DNA of 64,000 nt, taken from assembly GCA_000004985.1 (NCBI GenBank), contig GG738877.1. One strand, 5' to 3'. The notes beneath the pieces were generated by a model. It had not been told where the DNA came from and searched no databases. It worked only from the letters and a program-made list of their open reading frames with translations. Positions 2,887 through 33,120 of the stretch are shown piece after piece (within the stretch, counting starts at the first letter, position 1; each line of letters opens with the position of its first letter). The translations under genes and the position numbers were made by a program. Source of the stretch: Naegleria gruberi. Taxonomy: Eukaryota.

Positions 2887-4266
2887 ATGACATTAAATAT
2901 TTCACTCGTAGCTTCCTCGTCATCGTCGAATCCACTATATTCACACAAAATGACCAATTCTACAATGAATCATCATTCGGTTCTGATAACCTCCCCAAAA
3001 CACATTAAACCCTCACTAACTCACCAAACTTCATTCACTAACTCATCTCCCAAGCATTTGCACTCAAAATCAACAAATTGCTTGACCATTCCATCTTCAC
3101 CTTCTTCATTCAACCAACAAAGTCCTTCTAATAACAATGCTAACAAACCAACACTAGGTCTCTCACCCAGTAATGGAAGAAGAAGAAATAGTGGTCTCTT
3201 TTCAGAGAAAATTGAGGTTCCAATTCCATCGTTTAACATTTCACCTAGTCATGAAACAACACCAAATCATGCCCAAAAGCTTCGAACATTTTCATTTCAC
3301 TCCTCCACAACAACTTCCTCTCACCTCAATATACAGGAACCATCGTCCAGTACCAAACTTCCTTCACTAGCATCTCCAAAATCTCCCTCTACAACAAACC
3401 AATCCAATACCAAACATTCAGTGCTGAAGAGAAATAATTCAGCACATATTGTCCTTATGAGAGATCATTCTCCAGTTCAAGTGCCAAAAAGACAACAAGT
3501 TTTTGCCTCTCCTTCCCCTACTCCTTCTTCAACTTCCAATATTTCCCCAACCAATCAATACTCGAATCAACAATATATCACTAATAGTATTATGACAAAC
3601 AATACTACAAACAATGTACACAATCAATCCTTAATGCCCCAACAAGATCAATCATCATTTAGTATCAATAGAAAGGTACGATCTGCCTCTCATACTCCTT
3701 CAACAATGCCCCCTGTTATTATAACTAGTGAGTATAATAACGTTACGAGCACAATCTCAAAAGAATCTAAGGGAGTGTTAGGACCAATTGATCGTACCAA
3801 TATGAGAGTAACATTCAGGAAAAAGGCCGCTTCAAAAAAGGACCTCTTTCGTTCAGCAACCCCAAATCAGTCTCCAAAAAAGGAGAATGGATCTGTTTCT
3901 TTTGCTGACAAGTTTACCATTGCTGTAGAAACACAAAAACAAATTGAGGCTCTCACGGATTATGTAAAACTTGATAGTTACTCTTTTGGATTGCAGAACG
4001 AGGAATACAAATCAACGTCAAACTATGATCTCAAGTATGATGAGGAAATGTATAAGGCCTATGTTGATCAAAATCAAGATATGAAGACACTATTTGATGT
4101 ACATAATTTGGTGAGGGAGTATGTTTCTTCACGAGGTGTTTCATCAATTAAGAAAATTGCAATTAAGGATAGTAACAAACTTGTTCTAGATATCATAAGA
4201 CGATACAATCAGAAAACATTGAAAAAGAACAAATCAGAGCAAACTTTAAAATCTCTATTAAAGTAA
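2887..4266 (+). CDS. hypothetical S/T/N-rich low-complexity protein with a more structured C-terminal ~150 aa
   Basis: The first in-frame ATG is at 2887 (the ORF-track start 2881 is GTG). The reading frame stays open for 1.38 kb with no stops. TAA at 4264-4266. Confidence 0.5.
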   Translation: MTLNISLVASSSSSNPLYSHKMTNSTMNHHSVLITSPKHIKPSLTHQTSFTNSSPKHLHSKSTNCLTIPSSPSSFNQQSPSNNNANKPTLGLSPSNGRRRNSGLFSEKIEVPIPSFNISPSHETTPNHAQKLRTFSFHSSTTTSSHLNIQEPSSSTKLPSLASPKSPSTTNQSNTKHSVLKRNNSAHIVLMRDHSPVQVPKRQQVFASPSPTPSSTSNISPTNQYSNQQYITNSIMTNNTTNNVHNQSLMPQQDQSSFSINRKVRSASHTPSTMPPVIITSEYNNVTSTISKESKGVLGPIDRTNMRVTFRKKAASKKDLFRSATPNQSPKKENGSVSFADKFTIAVETQKQIEALTDYVKLDSYSFGLQNEEYKSTSNYDLKYDEEMYKAYVDQNQDMKTLFDVHNLVREYVSSRGVSSIKKIAIKDSNKLVLDIIRRYNQKTLKKNKSEQTLKSLLK

Positions 4267-22276: not shown

Positions 22277-25200
22277 TTATTCTACATCATCACTATCTTC
22301 ATCATCGCTATCTTCCAAAAGGATTTGCAAGGCCTCTTCTTTGGCTCTATTCTTTCCTGAATTCATAAATCCAAAGAAATCATCATCTTGTTTCACTTTG
22401 GATGAACTTCTCTCAATTTCATAATCTTGGAGAGAGGTTGAATGGACTTTCATGATTTCATCCTTTTCAAAATCTGATAAATAAGTTAGTACAATTACAT
22501 CGCCATCACTGAGATTGATTCTTCTCATTAAGTGAACTGGTTTTTTGATTTCTCCATGTTCTTCGACTTTTTCTATTGGTTTATCCTCTTCTATTCTAAT
22601 GATTCTACTGTCACCAAAGCTGAATTTGGACACTATGAATTCAGATACTGATCCAGAAGTATCAGAAATTGAGAGAATTCCTGCTTTGAAAGTGTCTACA
22701 GTATCCCATGATGAAATTTGAGAAATATTTACAATCAACTCCTTAGCTTCCATATATTCAAAATTACTTTCTGACCCTCTCTCAACGATCTTTCTCAATC
22801 TTACAATGATATGAAGTGGTGGAGGAATAACAAGTTTCTTCTTCTTTGCCTTTGGATCAATAACCTCAGGAGCAGAGGACAGCTTTTCATAAACATCGAC
22901 ATCATTATCCGTTAGTATCTTTACGGCAATTACCTTAGTATCTCTCCATCTTAGCTTTCCAAGAGATTTGTTCAAGTGAATTTTATCAGAGTAAACCTTG
23001 GTCATTCTCTTGAAACCTCCAGTGAAAGTGCAATCTCTTATTTGAAGATATTTGATATTTTCTACACTCTTGAAAGCATCAAGAGTTTTGAGTAAATAAA
23101 TTTTCAAGAACTCCAAAGACCAACTTTCAGAAGCTGTTATATTGGTATGGTGATAAATTTGGTTTTCATTCTCATTCCTAAAATATGAAAAGTGTTAAAA
23201 AAGTTAATAATTGAAACGTACAATATTCTTGAGGAACAAGTTTTTGGTGGGAAGTTGTGAACCAAATTAACTTTGACATGTATTTGGTTATTCAAAGGAG
23301 GCTTTCCAATTTCAATATATATTGTCTTTTCATTTGTTTGTTCGATCAATAAGGTAGAGAGGAGAGTTTCTTCATCCTTTATAATTTCTCGAGGTCTTTG
23401 GTTATGACATCCCCTAAATCTGAAATTATAGACATTGTCATACTGCCAATTTTCCTTTTTGAACTTTTGGGATAGTTTAGATTTGCTACCAATATTAGCA
23501 GATAAATTATTTTGTACACTTACATTATTTTAAGAGATGCCTCTTGGTCAACCTTTAACTCGAACATGTTAAGATAGTTGAATATTGGGCGTTCAGTCGT
23601 TTCATCATAGCCAGTATTCTTGGCTTCAATTTCAATGAACTTGATATCGACCTCCTTTTCTATGGAAAGCTTGATAATAATCTCTATTCTTTCTCCATCA
23701 CCAATATCTAAATCAGAGAGACTCTTTGTAGAATCCTCGTTTTTAAAGAATTGCTTCTTTTGCTTTCTTAACATCACACATTCTTTAATCCAATTTTCAC
23801 CTCCATATTTATGCAATTCTGATACAATACAATGAGAAGAGAACATTTCATCGAGAATTTTCTTCTTGAGTTGTTCCAGAGTGAAATTCAAATCCACTCG
23901 TACAATTTTTTCTCTATCTCCAAACTTTACAATTACAATATCTTCACAATCTTCGTTGGTTAGAGCTGCCTTGACGTTATGCTTTTGTCTTTCCAACTCC
24001 TGATATAATTCCTCTATTATAGAGAATTCATTGAATTCAAATTCTAGCCCTATGGAATCAAAGCCATCCAAAAAGTTTAGCATTTTCTTGTTCATATCTG
24101 TTACAAATATTGGCTTTTTGTTCTTATATCTGAGGTATGCCTTTAAAGGAAGGTCATCAATATAACCCATTCTTATTTTGGCCTGTCTGATAACATCTCC
24201 AATTGACATATCTACTCGGTATTCAATATCGAAAATGTTAGAATCCGTAAGTGTTTCATACATGGCACAAGTGACAGTCAATTTTTCAGGTGTGCTAAGG
24301 TTGAATCTTGGATCTGATACTGAGTGATCTGATTGATCCTCACTAGGCAGAACCAAAAGATACAAATATTTTGACTCCTTATCGCAATATTTTCTGATCA
24401 CTAAATCATCATCGTCAGAGTTTTTAGGAAGCGTTTGGTCTGAAATGGAATAAACTTTTCCTTCCTTGTTGAGCACTCGGAGTGAGAATGTATCGCCAAG
24501 CTTATCACCAAACTTTTCTCTAGTGATTTGATAAAATTCATCTATGTTAGAATCGTAATGAAATTCGAAAGATCTATATAAATTCTTCAAGTCTGATAAG
24601 TTGATTGGTGCTAGATGATTCTTCTCCACGGAGAAAAAGTTTGGAAGATAAACTACAGCTGTTCCAGTATTTTCTCTAAGAGAGTCTGTTTGCCTCTTCA
24701 TGTCAACCTGTTGTTCCTGATATTCTCTCATTACTTTAATTCCTTCATTCTCCCTATCAATATCATCTTTGAAATAAGATGGTATTGGAAAATCAAACTT
24801 GGTATTTTCGAAATCCATTTCCTTTCGTTTGTAGACCAACATGTATGCAGAGGCTCCCTTTCCACCATAATACTTTGGAATTTCCTCCTTTGGATCGATT
24901 TCAAAAACTCTCTCATCATTAAACTCGAACCAATGAGTTTGTCCTTCGAACTCCATTGCAAATTTCTTCTTTTTCTTTTCATTAGAAGTGTCCTCCTCTT
25001 CCAATAATCCAGTTCTTCCCTCCATTAAATGATCATGAATTAAGGAATAGTAGTGTCCACTATATGGACTACCACTGTGTATAATTATACCTATTAATTC
25101 ATACTCCTCTGGTTCACCTGGGTACTCTTTATATGGTGACATGTCTAGTACTGATTCAAATTTGATTTCCTTTTTAATTTTAATTCTGGACTCGGTTTTG

Positions 25201-26349
25201 AAGTCATAATCAAATCTTGTCAAGCTAAAGAATATTATTGGTGGGATAGCTCTCAAAGATGTGTTTCTAAATGCAAGATCCACCTGCTTGTTACATTTAG
25301 AACATGAATATTTGTTGTTTCCTTCGAATCGTTCAACTTCAACAAATTTTTCAAGACTTTCTCTCAAAGTATTTTCTACAGTGATAGTAATATCGTAGAA
25401 ATCCTCTTTTACACAGCTTGTATTTCCACATTCATTGCAGACAATCTTATTTACAGACACTCCTGCAAAGGTGTTCTTAATAAAATTGTCAATTTTCATT
25501 TTGGACAATTTAGTTTCCAAAGCACTGAAAAATACTCTACTCAATTCTTGAATATCATGTTGTACAGAAACTTGCCTAGATCTCCATCCAAATGCATCCG
25601 TTAGCTCTGTAGTTTCAATTGAAGGTTTCTCAATAGCCATCATGTAAGAAAATAATTTTTGCATTACAAAGAGTAAATTAGGTTGTTTTTGAGCTTTCTT
25701 TTTCTTGACAATCCTCTTACTTGAAAGTTTTTCATCATCGACTGAACATGGAATGCACGTATTGTCAAACAATGATCCAATCACACCATCTCGAGGTGGT
25801 ATGAAATCTTGCATTGTTGATTGTCTTTCTTGTTCTTCAAAGAGCCACATGATCATGTTTTCCTGAGTTCTGGTGTTCACATCTGTTGATCCAAAGGTAG
25901 GTTCTACAAATTTATGAAAGCATCTATTAATTAGACTGATTTCAAAACCCATATCAATCAATTGGCCATAATACGGAAAATCAGCAAAATCAATAGTAAC
26001 ATCCTCATATTCAGAATCAGATTGTTTTCCACTAACTTTCTTATATTTTTCCAAATTTAAATTCAAAATATTTGATCTAAAATGTGGGATCATATACAAT
26101 ATCTGGATCAAAGAGTTCAAGTAGCATGTAGCACCTCTTCTCAAAATTAAATATTGATCATGAATGTAATAGTACATACTGATTTCTAAGCCCAACAAAA
26201 TTCGAAGCTTGTCTTTTTAATTGATCCATAGAAGTTGAAACTCTGTAGGACTGATTAACTCCTTCCGATTCACTTGATGATGCAACATGTTGTTCAAACT
26301 CATCCATACCTCCAGCACCTGCAAAAATATCACCAAACAATTCAGACAT
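22277..26349 (-). CDS. ubiquitin carboxyl-terminal hydrolase (USP family) with a long C-terminal extension; 4 exons, ~1294 aa
   Basis: Exons are complement(26180..26349), complement(23524..26139), complement(23222..23419) and complement(22277..23177). Introns are 40 nt (GTATGT..GAG), 104 nt (GTAAGT..TTCAG) and 44 nt (GTACGT..TTAG). ATG at 26349. The exon 1/2 junction creates the Cys-box VGLRNQRGATCYLNSLIQ. The His-box is GSPYSGHYYSLI. The apparent stop at 23520 is inside a GTAAGT donor. The two downstream exons have no in-frame ATG and are phase-consistent only with this splicing. Confidence 0.75.
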
Positions 26350-26870: not shown

Positions 26871-29135
26871 ATGTTCGATATTGCTATTGCTAGTCATACA
26901 CTCGTAACAACATCTACACCCTATGTACTATATTGTATTGCTATAAAAGTTGATGATATTGCTGAATGGAGTTTGGAACGTCGTTACTCTCAATTGAGAG
27001 ATCTACACACAGAGTTGTCATATTACTATCAAAATTTACCAGATTTTCCACCAAAGGTTTGTTTATTGTTGTTAGATATTTGATGAACTGACATTTTATC
27101 ATCATTATTATGATTATAATAATAATATTATTATTGTTATTATTGATTTTATATACAGTATTGGAAAGGAAACTTTAAAGAACAAAAGATCTCTGAGAGA
27201 CAAACATTACTCAATCAATACTTTAAAACTCTTACAAGAAGAGATGATATTTTCAAACCGGGTATGATTCCTCTCTTTGTTCTTCAATTCTTCTCCTCTC
27301 CAACACCTGTAAAGGAGGCATACCAGAACACATCCATAGTCATTCGTAAAAGTAGTGAAAAGTTAATTCAAAACGTACTTGGAGAATCTGATAAATCAGC
27401 AGCCAGTCCTTCTAGTAGCAACAATAAGAAAGAAGGATCTTCTGGACCTAGAAAATCAGGTGCTTCCGACTTGGAATACGAAAAAGCTATCAATGATTGG
27501 AGTGTTGATGATGTCGCTTCTTGGATCCTTCTTCTCAATCATCAATATAACAGTAATAATTCAATTATTCAATCCAAATTCACAGAAGTTTTAAAAACTG
27601 AGTCAATCGATGGTAGCGTTTTAATTTATTTAACAACAAGAGATTTTGTCAAAATGGGTACTAGAATTAGTGTACAAACAACTCCTCAGGTGAATTCAGC
27701 TGTTTCAGATGCTTTTGCAAGTGTTATTATAGAAAATATTTTGCGAGTGAAAGAACAACAAACAGAATCTGGTCTCTACAGAATTGACAAGAGAGACGAA
27801 ATGAATGATGAAGATGAAGATTATGAAGATGATCGTACACCATCATACATGACAACAACAACAACTACAACAACTGCTCAAGCTAATGATGATTATGACG
27901 ATGACGATGATGATGATTTGAAGCAGGATTTAATTGGAACTGTTGTCACTGGTTCTACAACTTCAAGATCTGATACTACATCAATTAGTACACCTACTGG
28001 TCAAAGTTTTTCTGGTCGTATTTGTCCTGAATTTAACTTGGATAGTGAATTAACAAAGGAGGAACAAGAAAGTTACAGTTATTGTATGAAAAAGATTATG
28101 AATTTGAAAGATCCTGTACCAGAAAGTATTAGAAGAAGATTATGTCAAGATCTTGTTATTCCACAAAGATTCAAATTTAAATATTTGAATCCAAGTTCAA
28201 TTCCTCAAGAAGTTTTAATGATGAATAGTCGTAGAAAAGAAGGTCCATATCTTAAAATCAAGTTAATCATCACAGAATTAGGTGAAGGATTTACTCACCG
28301 TACAATCCGTAGATTGGGTTCTTTAGTTGGTCACAATGAAATCAAGAGTTCAGAGTTCGGTCTTTTCCACAGTTCACTCATTATTGGACCTGTACAATTA
28401 GAATGGACAGATAACTCTATTGTTGTTCCAAGAAAGGAGAAGAGTAGTTCAAAGGCTGTTTTTGCTGTTGATGTTTGTAAAATTAGAGGTCAAGAAAATC
28501 TCAATGATGTTTATGACAAATTAGCTCACTTTTGCACGTTTTGGAATGGCCATCGTCTCTACGTACAAAAAGATACAAATTGTCAACATTTTGTTGTTGA
28601 ACTTCTTAAAGCTATTGGTGTTTACAATCAATTTAAAAAGAATATTGAATCAACAATCTTAGGAAAGTACTTGAACAGACTGAGGGAATATGGTACATGT
28701 GAAATGTCTTATATCATTCCTGAACATTTAGCTCAAAGAATGTTAAAGGAATGTAAGGATGAAATTTCTTCACAGCTCAAACAACTCTTACAAACTTCTC
28801 TCAAAGGAAAGGAAATTATTTTCGATTCTCATTGTGTTCTCGATGAATATTATGAAACTGTTTTGAGGATAGAACCAACTTACTTTGATTTGGGTGATCA
28901 CAAGAAAGAAGAAGAACTTCTTAAGGCATACGATCGTGCTTTCTGGCTTAGACGTCAATCAACCAAAATGGCCAATGATCCAAGAGTTAAACCACTTCAT
29001 GATCCATGTCCATTTGATACAAATGGAGGTGCAAATACTGTTAAGGAAGGTGCTTTTTATCTTGGAGATTACGCACCAGAATATCCAGTACCAACAACTG
29101 TTCTCAATCAACTCAAACAACAACGAAGGAGGTAA
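26871..29135 (+). CDS. PX-domain protein with a C-terminal LRAT/PPPDE-like permuted papain-fold domain; 2 exons
   Basis: Exons are 26871..27056 and 27159..29135, with a 102-nt AT-rich intron GTTTGT..ACAG at phase 0. The PX domain spans the splice: YVLYCIAIKV...RRYSQLRDLHTELS...LPDFPPK|YWKGNFKEQKISERQTLLNQYFKTL. The C-terminal region has the H...C motif pair LFHSSLIIGPVQLEW ... NCQHFVVELLKAIG, resembling the NCEHF box of LRAT/PLAAT or the NCNHF box of PPPDE. Confidence 0.75.
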
Positions 29136-29231: not shown

Positions 29232-30362
29232 ATGCAAATAGTAGTTGTCTTTGAAGATAGTGGTGATATTTTTAATTTTGATGTGGATCCCAAGTCGGAT
29301 AATGTTGAGAATTTGAAAGCACTTTGCGAGATTGAAACCAAAATACCAATTTTGCAACAGGAAATGTTCTATCAGAATTTCCCTCTCAAAGACGATAATT
29401 TATTGGAAAAGTATGCCATTTCAGAGTCTGACATTATTGTTTTAAAAAAGAAGGCTCCACCAAGACAATCCCATCCAACTCCACAATCTCATCAATCCAA
29501 TGTAAATAGAAATCAACCACAACTAGTCGGCACTAATAATGTTGTCACTGAACAACAATTGCTTGACATATTCGGTGGTATTAATCATACTCCTCAATTA
29601 ACCAGACAACAAGAACTTGAAAGAAGAATACAAAACAATCCATTCGATATTGAAGCACAAAAATTATTGGAAGAGGAAATTCAAAGAAAGGAAATTGAGG
29701 AAAATTATTTGCAAGCTCTTGAACATACTCCTGAAACCTTTTTTGCTGTTCATATGTTATATGTTCCAGCTAAAATTAATGGTCATGACCTTAAGGCTTT
29801 TGTCGATTCAGGTGCTCAAATGTCAATCATGTCAAAACAATGTGCTGAAAAGTGTGGATTAATGAGACTTCTAGATAAGAGATATAAGGGTGTTGCAAAA
29901 GGTGTTGGATCTTGTGAAATTATGGGAAGAATTCACTTGACTTTGATGATTCTTGGCAAAACAGCTCTTCCTGTTACAATTACAGTTTTAAATCAAACAG
30001 GAATGAGCTTTCTGTTGGGCTTAGATATGCTCAAAAGGCACCAAATGATGATTGATTTGAAGGATAACTGCTTACGTGTTGGTGATGAACAGATTAAATT
30101 CTTGCCTCAAAATGAATGTCCAAATGAAATGACTGATTTGGAGAGTCCAAAACCGACTTCTGCTGATATATCCAGACCGAATCCATTCGATATGACTCCT
30201 TCCAATTCTAACAATACAGAAAGAGAAATAGTCATAACACAATTGATGGAAACAATTGGAATAGATAGAGAAAGCGTAATGAGGGCATTGGAAATGGCAA
30301 AAGGTAATGCTGAAGTTGCAGCCTCAATTCTTTTTGACATGAAGGAAAGAATGCAAAAGTAA
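29232..30362 (+). CDS. DDI1: DNA-damage-inducible protein 1 (Ddi1): ubiquitin-like domain, retropepsin-like aspartyl protease and UBA
   Basis: ATG at 29232, 376 aa. The protease active site reads VDSGAQMSIMS. The C-terminal UBA is ...VMRALEMAKGNAEVAASILF. Confidence 0.85.
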   Translation: MQIVVVFEDSGDIFNFDVDPKSDNVENLKALCEIETKIPILQQEMFYQNFPLKDDNLLEKYAISESDIIVLKKKAPPRQSHPTPQSHQSNVNRNQPQLVGTNNVVTEQQLLDIFGGINHTPQLTRQQELERRIQNNPFDIEAQKLLEEEIQRKEIEENYLQALEHTPETFFAVHMLYVPAKINGHDLKAFVDSGAQMSIMSKQCAEKCGLMRLLDKRYKGVAKGVGSCEIMGRIHLTLMILGKTALPVTITVLNQTGMSFLLGLDMLKRHQMMIDLKDNCLRVGDEQIKFLPQNECPNEMTDLESPKPTSADISRPNPFDMTPSNSNNTEREIVITQLMETIGIDRESVMRALEMAKGNAEVAASILFDMKERMQK

Positions 30363-30404: not shown

Positions 30405-33120
30405 TTAGATGTTCTTTACTTTCAGTGGAGCTCTTTCTTGATTATTGTTGCTTGGTTGTTGCAAATAGAGATTCTTATATTTTCTCAAATCCAAGTTCTC
30501 CTTTTCTAATTGTAAAATGTCTCTTGAATAAGTATTCTTAATTAATTCGTGGTTTTCTTCCTCCAATTCACGAATTCTCTTTTCCATCTCCACAAAATCT
30601 TCATTACATCTTCCTAACTCTGATTGTTGGGTTATTACTTGTTCGTGAAGCAGCTTGTTTTGAGCTGTCAACTTTTCAATCATGTCTGACATGGCAGTAA
30701 ACTTTTCTTGCTGTTGGAGCTCTTGAGGTCTTGCAATACTTCTCTTTTCGTTTAGCATTACTTCATATGTTTCCTTAGATCTCTTCAGAATCAAGTTGGA
30801 AGCCTCTAATTGTTCAACCTTGTCCTTCATACCTTTCATATCTTCAACTGTAAGTTTGAGATGATCATTTTGCTTGAGAAGAGTTTCAATTGTAACTTCA
30901 TTTGAGAGTCTCTTGGCTTCACTCTTTTCCAAACTAGATTTTAAGAGATCAATCTCTGCAGTCAAATTATGAATACGTTCGTTGAGCTCTGATGTGTCAG
31001 ATACTGAGACTGCTGGTCTTGAGGACAGATAATCATTAACACTTTCCAGTTCTGTAATTGTCTTCTTCAAATTTTGATTATTTCTTTCTAGGTGATCAAT
31101 CTTTTGGGATTGAGTAGTAAGCAACGAGTTTAACCTTGTATTAGCTTCTGTGAGTTCAGAATTACGAGTTTGCTCATTGAGGAGGTTCGACCCAACAATT
31201 TGTAACTCTGCTTCCTTTTGTTTGAGAGTAACAATTTGACCTTCATAAATATTAATTTGTGATTGCTTTTCTTGGTTGTCTCTGATTGCTCTTTGAAGTT
31301 GGTCTTGTAGTTGATCGAGTTCAGCAGCAAAAGACTTGGTTTGCTCTTCACGTTCTTCCAAAGAACGGATAGCAGCATGTAATTGAAGAGTGGCTTCCTC
31401 CAACTTGCAAGAAATATTTTCACAAAAAGCTGACTTTTCTTTGAGTTCTGATTCCACTGCTTCACAATGTTGTCTTCCACTGTTGAGTTCTTCACTCAAA
31501 TGATTAATATCAGATTGCTTGTTATCAATTTCTGACATTAATTGCTTATTGTGAGCATCTAATTGGTCAAGAGCAGACTCTAACATCTTTGTGTGGTTTG
31601 TAGCAGATTGGTATTCTTGAATAAATGCAGATAAGTGAGCTTGTTTTTCTTCATTTTCTCTTGTGAGTGTTTCATTAATTTCTCTATACTTTTCAGAAGC
31701 TTCTCTTTCTCTTTCGAATGAATTTTTCACTTCTTCAAGCTCATTTGTCATTCTTTCCAAGTCTTTGAGCAACTTTTGTTGATTCAAAATCTTTTCTTGA
31801 TGTCCCTCAAGCTTGACATTCTTTTTCTTCAATTCTTTGAGCTCCTTATCAAGGACTTGTTGAGTCTTTTGGAGATCTGATTTCTCTTGAGTGATTTTCT
31901 TACACTTCTCTTCAATCTTTGCATACTTCTTCTTCATATCAGCTATTTCAACAGCAAGTGGATTCTTTTTCTTTTCCTTCTCAAGTAAATTCTTTTGCTT
32001 CAAGATATCTTGATTGGTATTGTTAATTTGATTAATAACATCTCTGAGGTAGTTATTTTCATTTTGGAGTTCGCCCAAAACACTATCTCTTTCAAGAATA
32101 CCTTGTTCCAAGAAGAATAACTGTTCTTGGAATTGCATGAGTTGTTGTTGAGCTCTGATTTCAGAAGGGTCAGTGGAAGAATGGGATGAATGAGTGGAAG
32201 TGTTTAACAATTGATTTTGATCTGAAATAACACTGGAATTAGATGTTGGTGTGACAGTAGGGGTAACCTTTTGTGTAGGTTGCTTTGGAATGTTTGGTTT
32301 CTTTCTCAGTTTTGAATTATCAGCATTGTTAGTTGAGTTAACCATAGATGTATTTGGTTTAATTGCTGGAGCAGTAATATTCGAAAGGGTGGATTGACTA
32401 ACAGAAGCTCTTCTAGAAATACTCTTTCTAGAAGCCAAGCTTAATCTGTTTGATGAAGCACCAGAGGATGTTGTGGAGGAAGATGATTGGGAAAGTCTTG
32501 ACGAATTCATATTAGTGGACGAAACAAATGATTTCTTATCATTCAAAGTGTTAAATTTTCTCTTCTTTGCCACTTGTTCTTCTTCATAGGAAGAGGAGGA
32601 AACAAGCAATGGATTTGGCGAATGTGGATAAAAAAAGTTTTGAGCATCATTAAACCCATCTCCCACCGAATTGTGTTGAAAGGCAAGTTGTTGTGGTTGC
32701 ATCATCATTTGATAGTTGTTGTTGTTGTTGTGGTTGTTGTGGTTGCTGATGATGATAATTACTCGAATCAGAAACAGCATCGAATATATTATCAGATAAG
32801 GGATGATGAAGGGAGGAAGGCATTGGTGTGGAGACATATTCTTGATATTCTTGTTGATGGTCTACTTCTTCTCTAGCCACCTGTTGTTGTTGTTGTTGTT
32901 CATTGTTATTATTATTCATCATCATTTGTTGTTGCATCATCATTACATATTGTTGATGTTGTGCTTCGATTGTGGAGGCAGCAGATGGAGGCGAATCAAA
33001 TACTGAGGCCGGATCGATATTGTGGAGGATGGGTGTTGTTTCTTCTCCTTGTGATGAGAGGCATGGGCTTATCACAAAGTCATTGTCTGCTGCAGGGGAT
33101 GTTGTTTGATGTTGTTGCAT
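30405..33120 (-). CDS. long coiled-coil protein with a Q/N-rich N-terminus; the reading frame is interrupted once inside a CAA/AAC repeat (probable indel)
   Basis: ATG at 33120 (MQQHQTTSPAADN). The sensible frame runs to about 32700 (..SDSSNYHHQQPQQPQQQQQ). It then shifts by 1 nt into the frame of the 810-aa ORF 30405..32837 (..YQMMMQPQQLAFQHNSVGDGF.. then about 600 aa of heptad-rich coiled coil). No phase-compatible intron is available; the only GT..AG candidate is 17 nt and gives the wrong frame. Confidence 0.55.
32708..32746. repeat. imperfect (GTT/CAA)n trinucleotide microsatellite inside the coiled-coil gene
   Basis: The plus strand reads gttgttgttgttgttgtggttgttgtggttg. This is the site of the frame discontinuity in the coiled-coil gene. 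Confidence 0.7.

Follow-up and report, generated by a model that had tools for sequence, protein, structure and literature searches.

Gene structure and protein layout

The 64,000-nt stretch of Naegleria gruberi DNA studied here (contig GG738877.1 of assembly GCA_000004985.1; hereafter the window) carries, at 26871-29135 on the plus strand, a single two-exon gene whose spliced product of 720 residues unites a PX domain, a SAM domain and a C-terminal catalytic module. We found that this module is predicted to adopt a circularly permuted papain fold closest to PPPDE/DeSI, and that it contains an intact predicted His-Tyr-Cys triad. The order of the parts is PX domain, SAM domain, disordered acidic linker and catalytic module, and the features of the gene are as follows (pLDDT, predicted local distance difference test score).

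26871-27056, plus strand: exon 1, 62 codons (residues 1-62), with the start codon and the N-terminal half of the PX domain; last residues ...NLPDFPPK
27057-27158, plus strand: intron of 102 nt, GTTTGT...ACAG (GT..AG), phase 0
27159-29135, plus strand: exon 2, residues 63-720 and the stop codon, beginning YWKGNFKEQK
26871-27302, plus strand, interrupted by the intron: PX domain, about residues 1-110, matching Pfam PX (PF00787)
27468-27758, plus strand: predicted SAM domain, about residues 166-262, assigned by hhalign to SAM-positive paralogues
27759-28019, plus strand: linker, residues 263-349, low-complexity, acidic and Thr-rich, predicted disordered
28020-28244, plus strand: N-terminal helical sub-domain of the catalytic module, family-specific, residues 350-424
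28245-28652, plus strand: predicted PPPDE-like permuted papain-fold core, residues 425-560
28653-29042, plus strand: C-terminal helical extension, family-specific, residues 561-690, with helices at pLDDT 82-95

The coordinates, the 102-nt intron and the LPDFPPK / YWKGNF junction all agree with those proposed in a preliminary description of this DNA, which was made from the sequence alone. That description was correct on the gene model and unaware that the model is already annotated publicly: an exact-sequence look-up showed the spliced product to be identical at every residue to XP_002675546.1 / EFC42802.1 / UniProt D2VK52, a record of Naegleria gruberi strain NEG-M labelled only 'PX domain-containing protein'. 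The PX-SAM-domain architecture is shared by full-length orthologues from N. fowleri (722 residues, 84% identity) and Willaertia magna (719 residues, 51% identity). The protein is predicted to be soluble: it has neither a signal peptide nor a transmembrane segment, the highest mean Kyte-Doolittle hydropathy in any 19-residue stretch of the whole protein being 1.02.

The G+C content of the intron is 17% and that of the exons 34%, and stop codons occur in frame within the intron. In an orthologous metagenome contig (L001), which encodes a protein of 729 residues, the same exon 1 is found at 3299-3484 and is followed by the same exon 2. There the intron lies after the same Lys codon and is also of the GT..AG type, but it is only 64 nt long, a length that is not a multiple of three, and unrelated in sequence. 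The splice is backed by this comparison, because the position of the intron was kept as its sequence and length diverged. Prokaryote-style gene callers report the downstream open reading frame (ORF) alone, starting from Met98, which would be expected if the PX exon and the long ORF were two transcripts and their fusion an artefact of gene modelling. However, the intron cuts the PX domain directly after the lysine of the PPK motif, and the PX alpha-2 and alpha-3 helices are encoded in exon 2, so the PX domain cannot be assigned to a transcript apart from exon 2. Moreover, the frame runs without interruption between the acceptor site and the stop codon, and N. gruberi, N. fowleri and W. magna all have annotated PX-SAM-domain proteins. 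Given the interrupted PX domain, the conserved intron position and the annotated orthologues, we rejected the split-gene explanation, to which we attach a negligible probability; the two halves belong to one gene, as the preliminary description had assumed.

A PX domain of the PtdIns3P-binding type

The N-terminal domain matched the Pfam PX hidden Markov model (HMM) over residues 31-89 with E = 1.8e-11 and 44.8 bits, above the gathering score of 21.6, which bears out the PX assignment made earlier. The Willaertia orthologue scored 42.7 bits against the same model. Identity over the PX region is 85% to N. fowleri and 55% to Willaertia, and the top matches among PDB sequences were the PX domains of a designed CISK, KIF16B/SNX23, nischarin, SNX16 and SGK3. 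Canonical binding of phosphatidylinositol 3-phosphate (PtdIns3P) requires four side chains (Chandra et al., PMC6449406): an Arg and a Tyr form a pair where beta3 meets alpha1, the PsiPxxPxK loop supplies its Lys, and alpha2 contributes an Arg. The N. gruberi protein has all of them.

26982-26987, plus strand: Arg38-Tyr39, in ERRYSQL
27054-27056, plus strand: Lys62, in LPDFPPK (L56-K62)
27198-27200, plus strand: Arg76, in ISERQ

All four residues are retained in the N. fowleri and Willaertia orthologues. With its Arg-Tyr / Lys / Arg pocket complete, this is a genuine PX domain, predicted to be of the PtdIns3P-binding type. The full-length AlphaFold model was weak over this domain (pLDDT <50) because only three sequences cover the PX region; its top Foldseek match, the SNX23 PX domain, had E = 2.5 and was not used as evidence.

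The catalytic module has a predicted PPPDE-like fold

An AlphaFold model of the catalytic module, built with 11 homologues, reached a mean pLDDT of 80.7 and a predicted template-modelling score (pTM) of 0.80. Its secondary-structure elements follow the order strand, helix, His-bearing strand, hairpin, two strands, long helix and Cys-bearing helix, which is the permuted papain arrangement. The leading structural matches were DeSI-1/PPPDE2, CLN5, PPPDE1 and TseH, and the next specific ones YiiX, PLAAT4 and the C92 lipid amidase 3KW0. Foldseek on the model placed PPPDE1 (3EBQ) first with a probability of 0.99, followed by 2WP7 at 0.87, with all other matches at or below 0.05; the predicted fold is thus superposable on 2WP7 and 3EBQ.

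Profile comparisons point the same way. A profile of the core, built from 124 sequences, aligned with residues 24-119 of DeSI-1 at an hhalign probability of 87.6% (pairwise E = 3.5e-6), and this alignment pairs the His, Asp, Tyr and Asn-Cys positions. Among 13 close relatives, nine match DUF4796_C (best 8e-7) and five match Peptidase_C97 at E < 0.01 (best 4.2e-5). When the comparison was widened to 94 representatives, ten matched Peptidase_C97 at E < 0.01, two LRAT and two DUF4796_C. In D2W575, an N. gruberi paralogue with two copies of the domain, one copy scores 43.4 bits against Peptidase_C97, for which the gathering score is 29.2. Taken together, the model and the relatives place the catalytic module, as a predicted circularly permuted papain-fold domain, in the PPPDE/DeSI-CLN5-DUF4796 neighbourhood of the NlpC/P60 group, closest to PPPDE/DeSI. 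The preliminary description had proposed a papain fold of either the LRAT or the PPPDE kind; the permuted fold with His before Cys stood, on the PPPDE side, and membership of LRAT did not.

A predicted triad and a conserved C-terminal extension

The active centre of PPPDE proteins is a permuted His-Tyr-Cys triad, His38/Tyr101/Cys108 in PPPDE1 (Luebben et al., PMC9012467) and His166/Tyr258/Cys280 in CLN5 (PMC9012467). In the N. gruberi protein, the His motif LFHSSLIIGPVQLEW that had been pointed out beforehand was located at residues 464-478 and the Cys motif NCQHFVVELLKAIG at residues 536-549. The residues occur in the same order as in PPPDE1, with a spacing of 64/7 as against 63/7. To quantify conservation, we used 144 representatives that share less than 50% mutual identity; the His and Cys motifs are both near-invariant among them and not a matter of chance.

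28368-28370, plus strand: His466, predicted triad His, 96% conserved
28560-28562, plus strand: Tyr530, predicted triad Tyr, 99% conserved
28581-28583, plus strand: Cys537, predicted triad Cys, 97% conserved
28932-28952, plus strand: DRAFWLR motif, residues 654-660, near-invariant
29007-29015, plus strand: CPF motif, residues 679-681 (Cys679-Pro-Phe681), near-invariant

Other core residues are conserved to a similar degree (Asn536 100%, Gln538 95%, Phe540 99%, Asp500 94%, Asn525 99%, and Glu477 88%, with a further 10% Asp), and few representatives are without the triad Cys or His. The core (residues 425-560) is the most conserved stretch of the protein, with 99% identity to N. fowleri and 77% to Willaertia. 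This pattern, in which the core is more conserved than the PX domain and the triad is near-invariant, fits an active enzyme, and His466-Tyr530-Cys537 is, as judged from conservation, an intact predicted PPPDE-type triad under selection.

The module is considerably larger than a PPPDE domain (about 370 versus about 150 residues), the excess being the helical sub-domain at residues 350-424 and the 130-residue C-terminal extension. The former consists of helices modelled at pLDDT 77-91, with 96% identity to N. fowleri and 63% to Willaertia. In the latter, Gly574, Phe617, His620, Asp624, Lys651, Asp654 (100%), Arg655 and Trp658 are near-invariant and conserved to the same degree as the triad. Neither residues 350-424 nor the C-terminal extension matched any Pfam family or PDB sequence.

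SAM domain and linker

Between the PX domain and the catalytic module, the preliminary description, which was right about the two outer halves, had overlooked a SAM domain, just as it had overlooked the C-terminal extension. The SAM region on its own gave a weak sub-threshold match to SAM_PNT (12.2 bits, gathering score 24). The N-terminal SAM domains of Naegleria and Willaertia paralogues match SAM_1/SAM_2 at about 1e-10, and hhalign of the orthologues' SAM region against the paralogues' SAM domain, with the two groups aligned independently, gave a probability of 96.7% and E = 4e-10. In addition, five helices are predicted here in the full-length model, at pLDDT 60-68. By this comparison, residues 166-262 form a predicted SAM domain whose own HMM match lies below threshold. 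In the PX-bearing orthologues, some 14-17 extra residues, TRISVQTTPQVNSAVSD, are inserted ahead of the last helix of the SAM domain (27640-27720, residues ~224-250), and in the N. gruberi protein the insertion amounts to about 14 residues; SAM-only paralogues are without an insertion of this type. The linker that follows is modelled at pLDDT <50 and is only 22% identical to that of Willaertia.

A large family in Heterolobosea

An HMM search of 1.84 billion representative sequences returned 1,343 proteins with E <= 1e-3, of which 825 reached E <= 1e-10 and 269 reached E <= 1e-30, so that the family comprises at least 1,343 representatives, clustered at 50% identity. All members with an organism name are from Heterolobosea, namely N. 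gruberi, N. fowleri, N. lovaniensis, Willaertia magna, Acrasis kona and Pharyngomonas kirbyi; the others derive from metagenome or read-archive assemblies. Neither viral contigs nor 185,579 prokaryotic genomes yielded a relative in pattern-based scans. A profile search with the 144-sequence alignment, which was dominated by low-complexity words, retrieved three orthologues only, including that of N. fowleri. The presence of several distinct paralogues per genome suggests a lineage-specific expansion.

The 94 representatives carry a recurrent set of fusion partners: SAM in 19, PH in five, PX in three, and a protein kinase domain together with two tandem copies of the domain in one. The ubiquitin-binding modules UIM, UBA, UBX and ZnF-UBP were found in none of them. 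The paralogue D2W575 / XP_002668523.1 of N. gruberi has a protein kinase domain and, arranged in tandem, two PPPDE-like modules, of which copy 1 exceeds the Peptidase_C97 gathering score and copy 2 matches LRAT at 23.9 bits (gathering score 24.3).

The gene model and the PX label can already be found in public databases, and the fold class assigned to the C-terminal domain is not a new one. The family itself appears, from these comparisons, to be undescribed: it is large and PPPDE-derived, and its members have a conserved C-terminal module of their own and are repeatedly fused to phosphoinositide readers. No existing HMM captures it at threshold, and Pfam contains no model specific to it. Within the collection of papers searched, none mentions both PPPDE and PX domains, and MKRN2OS is not known to have a described biochemical function.

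Comparison with known systems

With PPPDE/DeSI (PF05903; DESI1/PPPDE2, 2WP7, and DESI2/PPPDE1, 3EBQ), the N. gruberi protein shares the order and spacing of His, Tyr and Cys and the motifs G-x-[FW]-H-T-[AS] and Y-x6-N-C-x-x-F. It differs from them in giving no PF05903 match, in its fused PX and SAM domains and in the extension with DRAFWLR and CPF, which is absent from PPPDE. CLN5 (PDB 6R99), a lysosomal cysteine S-depalmitoylase and bis(monoacylglycero)phosphate (BMP) synthase, likewise has a His-Tyr-Cys centre with extra helical elements, and its endolysosomal association would be matched in the N. gruberi protein by the predicted targeting through PX. However, CLN5 is lumenal and glycosylated, whereas the N. 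gruberi protein lacks a signal peptide and a transmembrane segment and is predicted to work from the cytosolic side through its PX domain; sequence similarity between the two is not detectable.

DUF4796 (PF16044), the MKRN2OS family, has been placed in the NlpC/P60-like cluster of papain-like proteins (Ozhelvaci and Steczkiewicz, PMC10318531). It is matched weakly by the N. gruberi protein and more strongly by the relatives, but its members are small (e.g. GVD-1, 178 residues) and have no PX domain, SAM domain or extension. LRAT/PLAAT proteins (H-rev107, PF04970) have in common with it the permuted NlpC/P60 fold, His before Cys and an NC-x-HF motif, and they are active at membranes. Finally, PX enzymes and sorting nexins such as KIF16B/SNX23 and SGK3/CISK use a PtdIns3P-type PX domain to place an effector on endosomes, as is predicted for the N. 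gruberi protein; the effector in N. gruberi, unlike theirs, is a predicted PPPDE-like thiol hydrolase.

Proposed activity and alternative explanations

The explanation that we favour, with roughly even confidence and by analogy with characterized relatives of the fold, is that the protein is a phosphoinositide-recruited thiol acyl-hydrolase with an activity of the depalmitoylase or lipid-acyl-hydrolase type. The PX domain would bring the enzyme to endosomal or phagosomal membranes rich in PtdIns3P, on their cytosolic face, and the SAM domain may assist by oligomerisation. Cys537, activated by His466, would attack the acyl group of a membrane-anchored substrate, and the resulting acyl-thioenzyme would then be resolved by water (hydrolysis) or by an acceptor (transacylation). 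As for the substrate, we infer an acyl-(thio)ester, which could be either an S-acylated protein or a membrane lipid. PPPDE1, PPPDE2 and CLN5 are efficient palmitoyl-thioesterases with weak or absent cleavage of SUMO and ubiquitin (PMC9012467), and the lysosomal BMP synthase, a transacylase, is now taken to be CLN5. We favour the acyl-(thio)ester because of these thioesterase data, the transacylase role of CLN5 and the fusion of the family to lipid readers and not to ubiquitin readers.

Several observations weigh against this proposal. The C-terminal module (residues 350-720) matched neither the LRAT nor the Peptidase_C97 HMM even at E <= 10, and the sole catalytic-domain HMM that the 720-residue protein touches, DUF4796_C (PF16044), does so at residues 498-554 with 13.5 bits, below the gathering score of 28 (E = 0.062). 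When the full-domain and core profiles were compared with PDB sequences, no significant solved structure was found; the marginal matches to HRASLS2 and DeSI-1 (E ~1) served solely to see which residues align. Furthermore, the genes on either side of the PX gene encode a UCH/USP deubiquitinase and a DDI1-type protein, which weakly favours a link to ubiquitin, and the substrate class is an inference by analogy, from in-vitro assays of artificial substrates, and from the missing ubiquitin-binding fusions in the 94-member sample. The preliminary description had looked to HMM searches and structure prediction for a decision, and these diverged, in that the protein gave no LRAT or PPPDE match and its predicted structure is papain-like. 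The papain-fold assignment stands despite the missing HMM match, because the predicted structure is papain-like and the two halves form one gene.

The same architecture would also suit a DeSI-like deubiquitinase or deSUMOylase that is recruited through PX to PtdIns3P endosomes, where it would edit marks of ubiquitin or of ubiquitin-like proteins on cargo or on the sorting machinery. DeSI-1, the closest solved fold, was deposited as a deSUMOylase, Peptidase_C97 is the nearest named Pfam family, and weak deubiquitinase and deSUMOylase activities have been reported for PPPDE1/2; together with the flanking genes, these points, of which the deposited function of DeSI-1 and the gene neighbourhood are weak, make such an isopeptidase the main alternative, albeit an improbable one. 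What counts against it is that the cleavage of SUMO and ubiquitin by PPPDE1/2 and CLN5 is very low or absent compared with their strong thioesterase activity (PMC9012467), that the fusions bring in no ubiquitin-binding module among the 94 representatives, and that a eukaryotic gene neighbourhood is weak evidence, especially as the upstream neighbour is not the same in the orthologous contig. Membership of the LRAT/PLAAT (H-rev107) group, which would make the protein a phospholipase A1/2 or an O-/N-acyltransferase acting on glycerophospholipids, is suggested by the resemblance of NCQHF to the LRAT motif NCEHF, by the marginal profile match to HRASLS2, in which the His and Cys align, and by the two relatives that match the LRAT HMM, the better of them, with 23.9 bits, falling just short of the gathering score (24.3). 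The N. gruberi protein itself has no such match, however, and the second histidine of LRAT proteins, about 12 residues after the first, is missing because Glu477-Trp478 (a conserved E/D and W) fill positions +11/+12. The Tyr seven residues before the Cys and the His-Cys spacing agree with PPPDE, a C-terminal transmembrane anchor is lacking, and PPPDE and CLN5 scored much higher in both fold searches. On these grounds we rejected LRAT membership, which we consider very unlikely.

Papain-like pseudo-enzymes are common and no family member has a measured activity, so the module might conceivably be a catalytically dead scaffold in a protein that works as a sorting-nexin-like adaptor through PX and SAM. 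But the His, Tyr, Asn-Cys and Gln are 95-100% conserved over the 144 representatives, the core is nearly identical in N. gruberi and N. fowleri, and the loss of Cys or His is limited to a few representatives, as expected when most members are active. We therefore rejected the pseudo-enzyme explanation as highly improbable.

Returning to the phosphoinositide-recruited acyl-hydrolase, we tentatively extend it to the family as a whole, although this extension is doubtful: the C-terminal module may define a new family of PPPDE-derived cysteine acyl-hydrolases/transacylases with an obligatory C-terminal module (His620, Asp624, DRAFWLR, CPF), massively expanded in Heterolobosea and wired to PX, PH, SAM and kinase domains. 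If so, it would be a cytosolic, phosphoinositide-addressed counterpart to chemistry of the CLN5 type, with organelle-specific S-depalmitoylation or lysophospholipid transacylation on the endosomes or phagosomes of a phagocytic amoeba as candidate activities. Biochemical work covers few proteins of the PPPDE superfamily, and it is disputed whether their true substrates are isopeptides, palmitoyl thioesters or lysophospholipids. A family with an intact predicted triad and built-in address labels (PX, PH, SAM) is a natural test case for what the PPPDE fold does at membranes, because these labels tell where the enzyme works. Any chemistry found would be expected to carry over to the brain-eating amoeba N. 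fowleri, because the catalytic core is 99% identical, and the apparent lineage restriction of the family is relevant to selective inhibition. Interest in the family would rise if it proved, as is possible though unlikely, to consist of phosphoinositide-addressed depalmitoylases or transacylases.

Gene neighbourhood

The two genes that flank the PX gene in the window are listed below.

23520-26198, minus strand: UCH/USP deubiquitinase gene, upstream and head-to-head with the PX gene (PF00443, E = 2.6e-43)
29232-30362, plus strand: DDI1-type gene, downstream, encoding two domains, one ubiquitin-like and one a retropepsin-like Asp_protease (E = 1.5e-45)

In a second contig (L002, 2193-2654), DDI1 is likewise the downstream neighbour of the orthologue, and the upstream neighbour in contig L001 is a Kelch-repeat protein rather than a USP. 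Within the 64,000-nt window, neither a second copy of the PPPDE-like domain nor a tRNA was found.

Just upstream of the USP ORF and on the same strand lies a short ORF of 63 residues (26158-26349, minus strand, MSELFGDIF...), which could represent exon 1 of the USP gene. In that case, the intergenic region shared with the PX gene would be only about 520 bp. Further downstream, an ORF of 810 residues at 30405-32837 on the minus strand, with no Pfam match at E <= 0.001, has coiled-coil-like stretches and runs of Asn and Gln.

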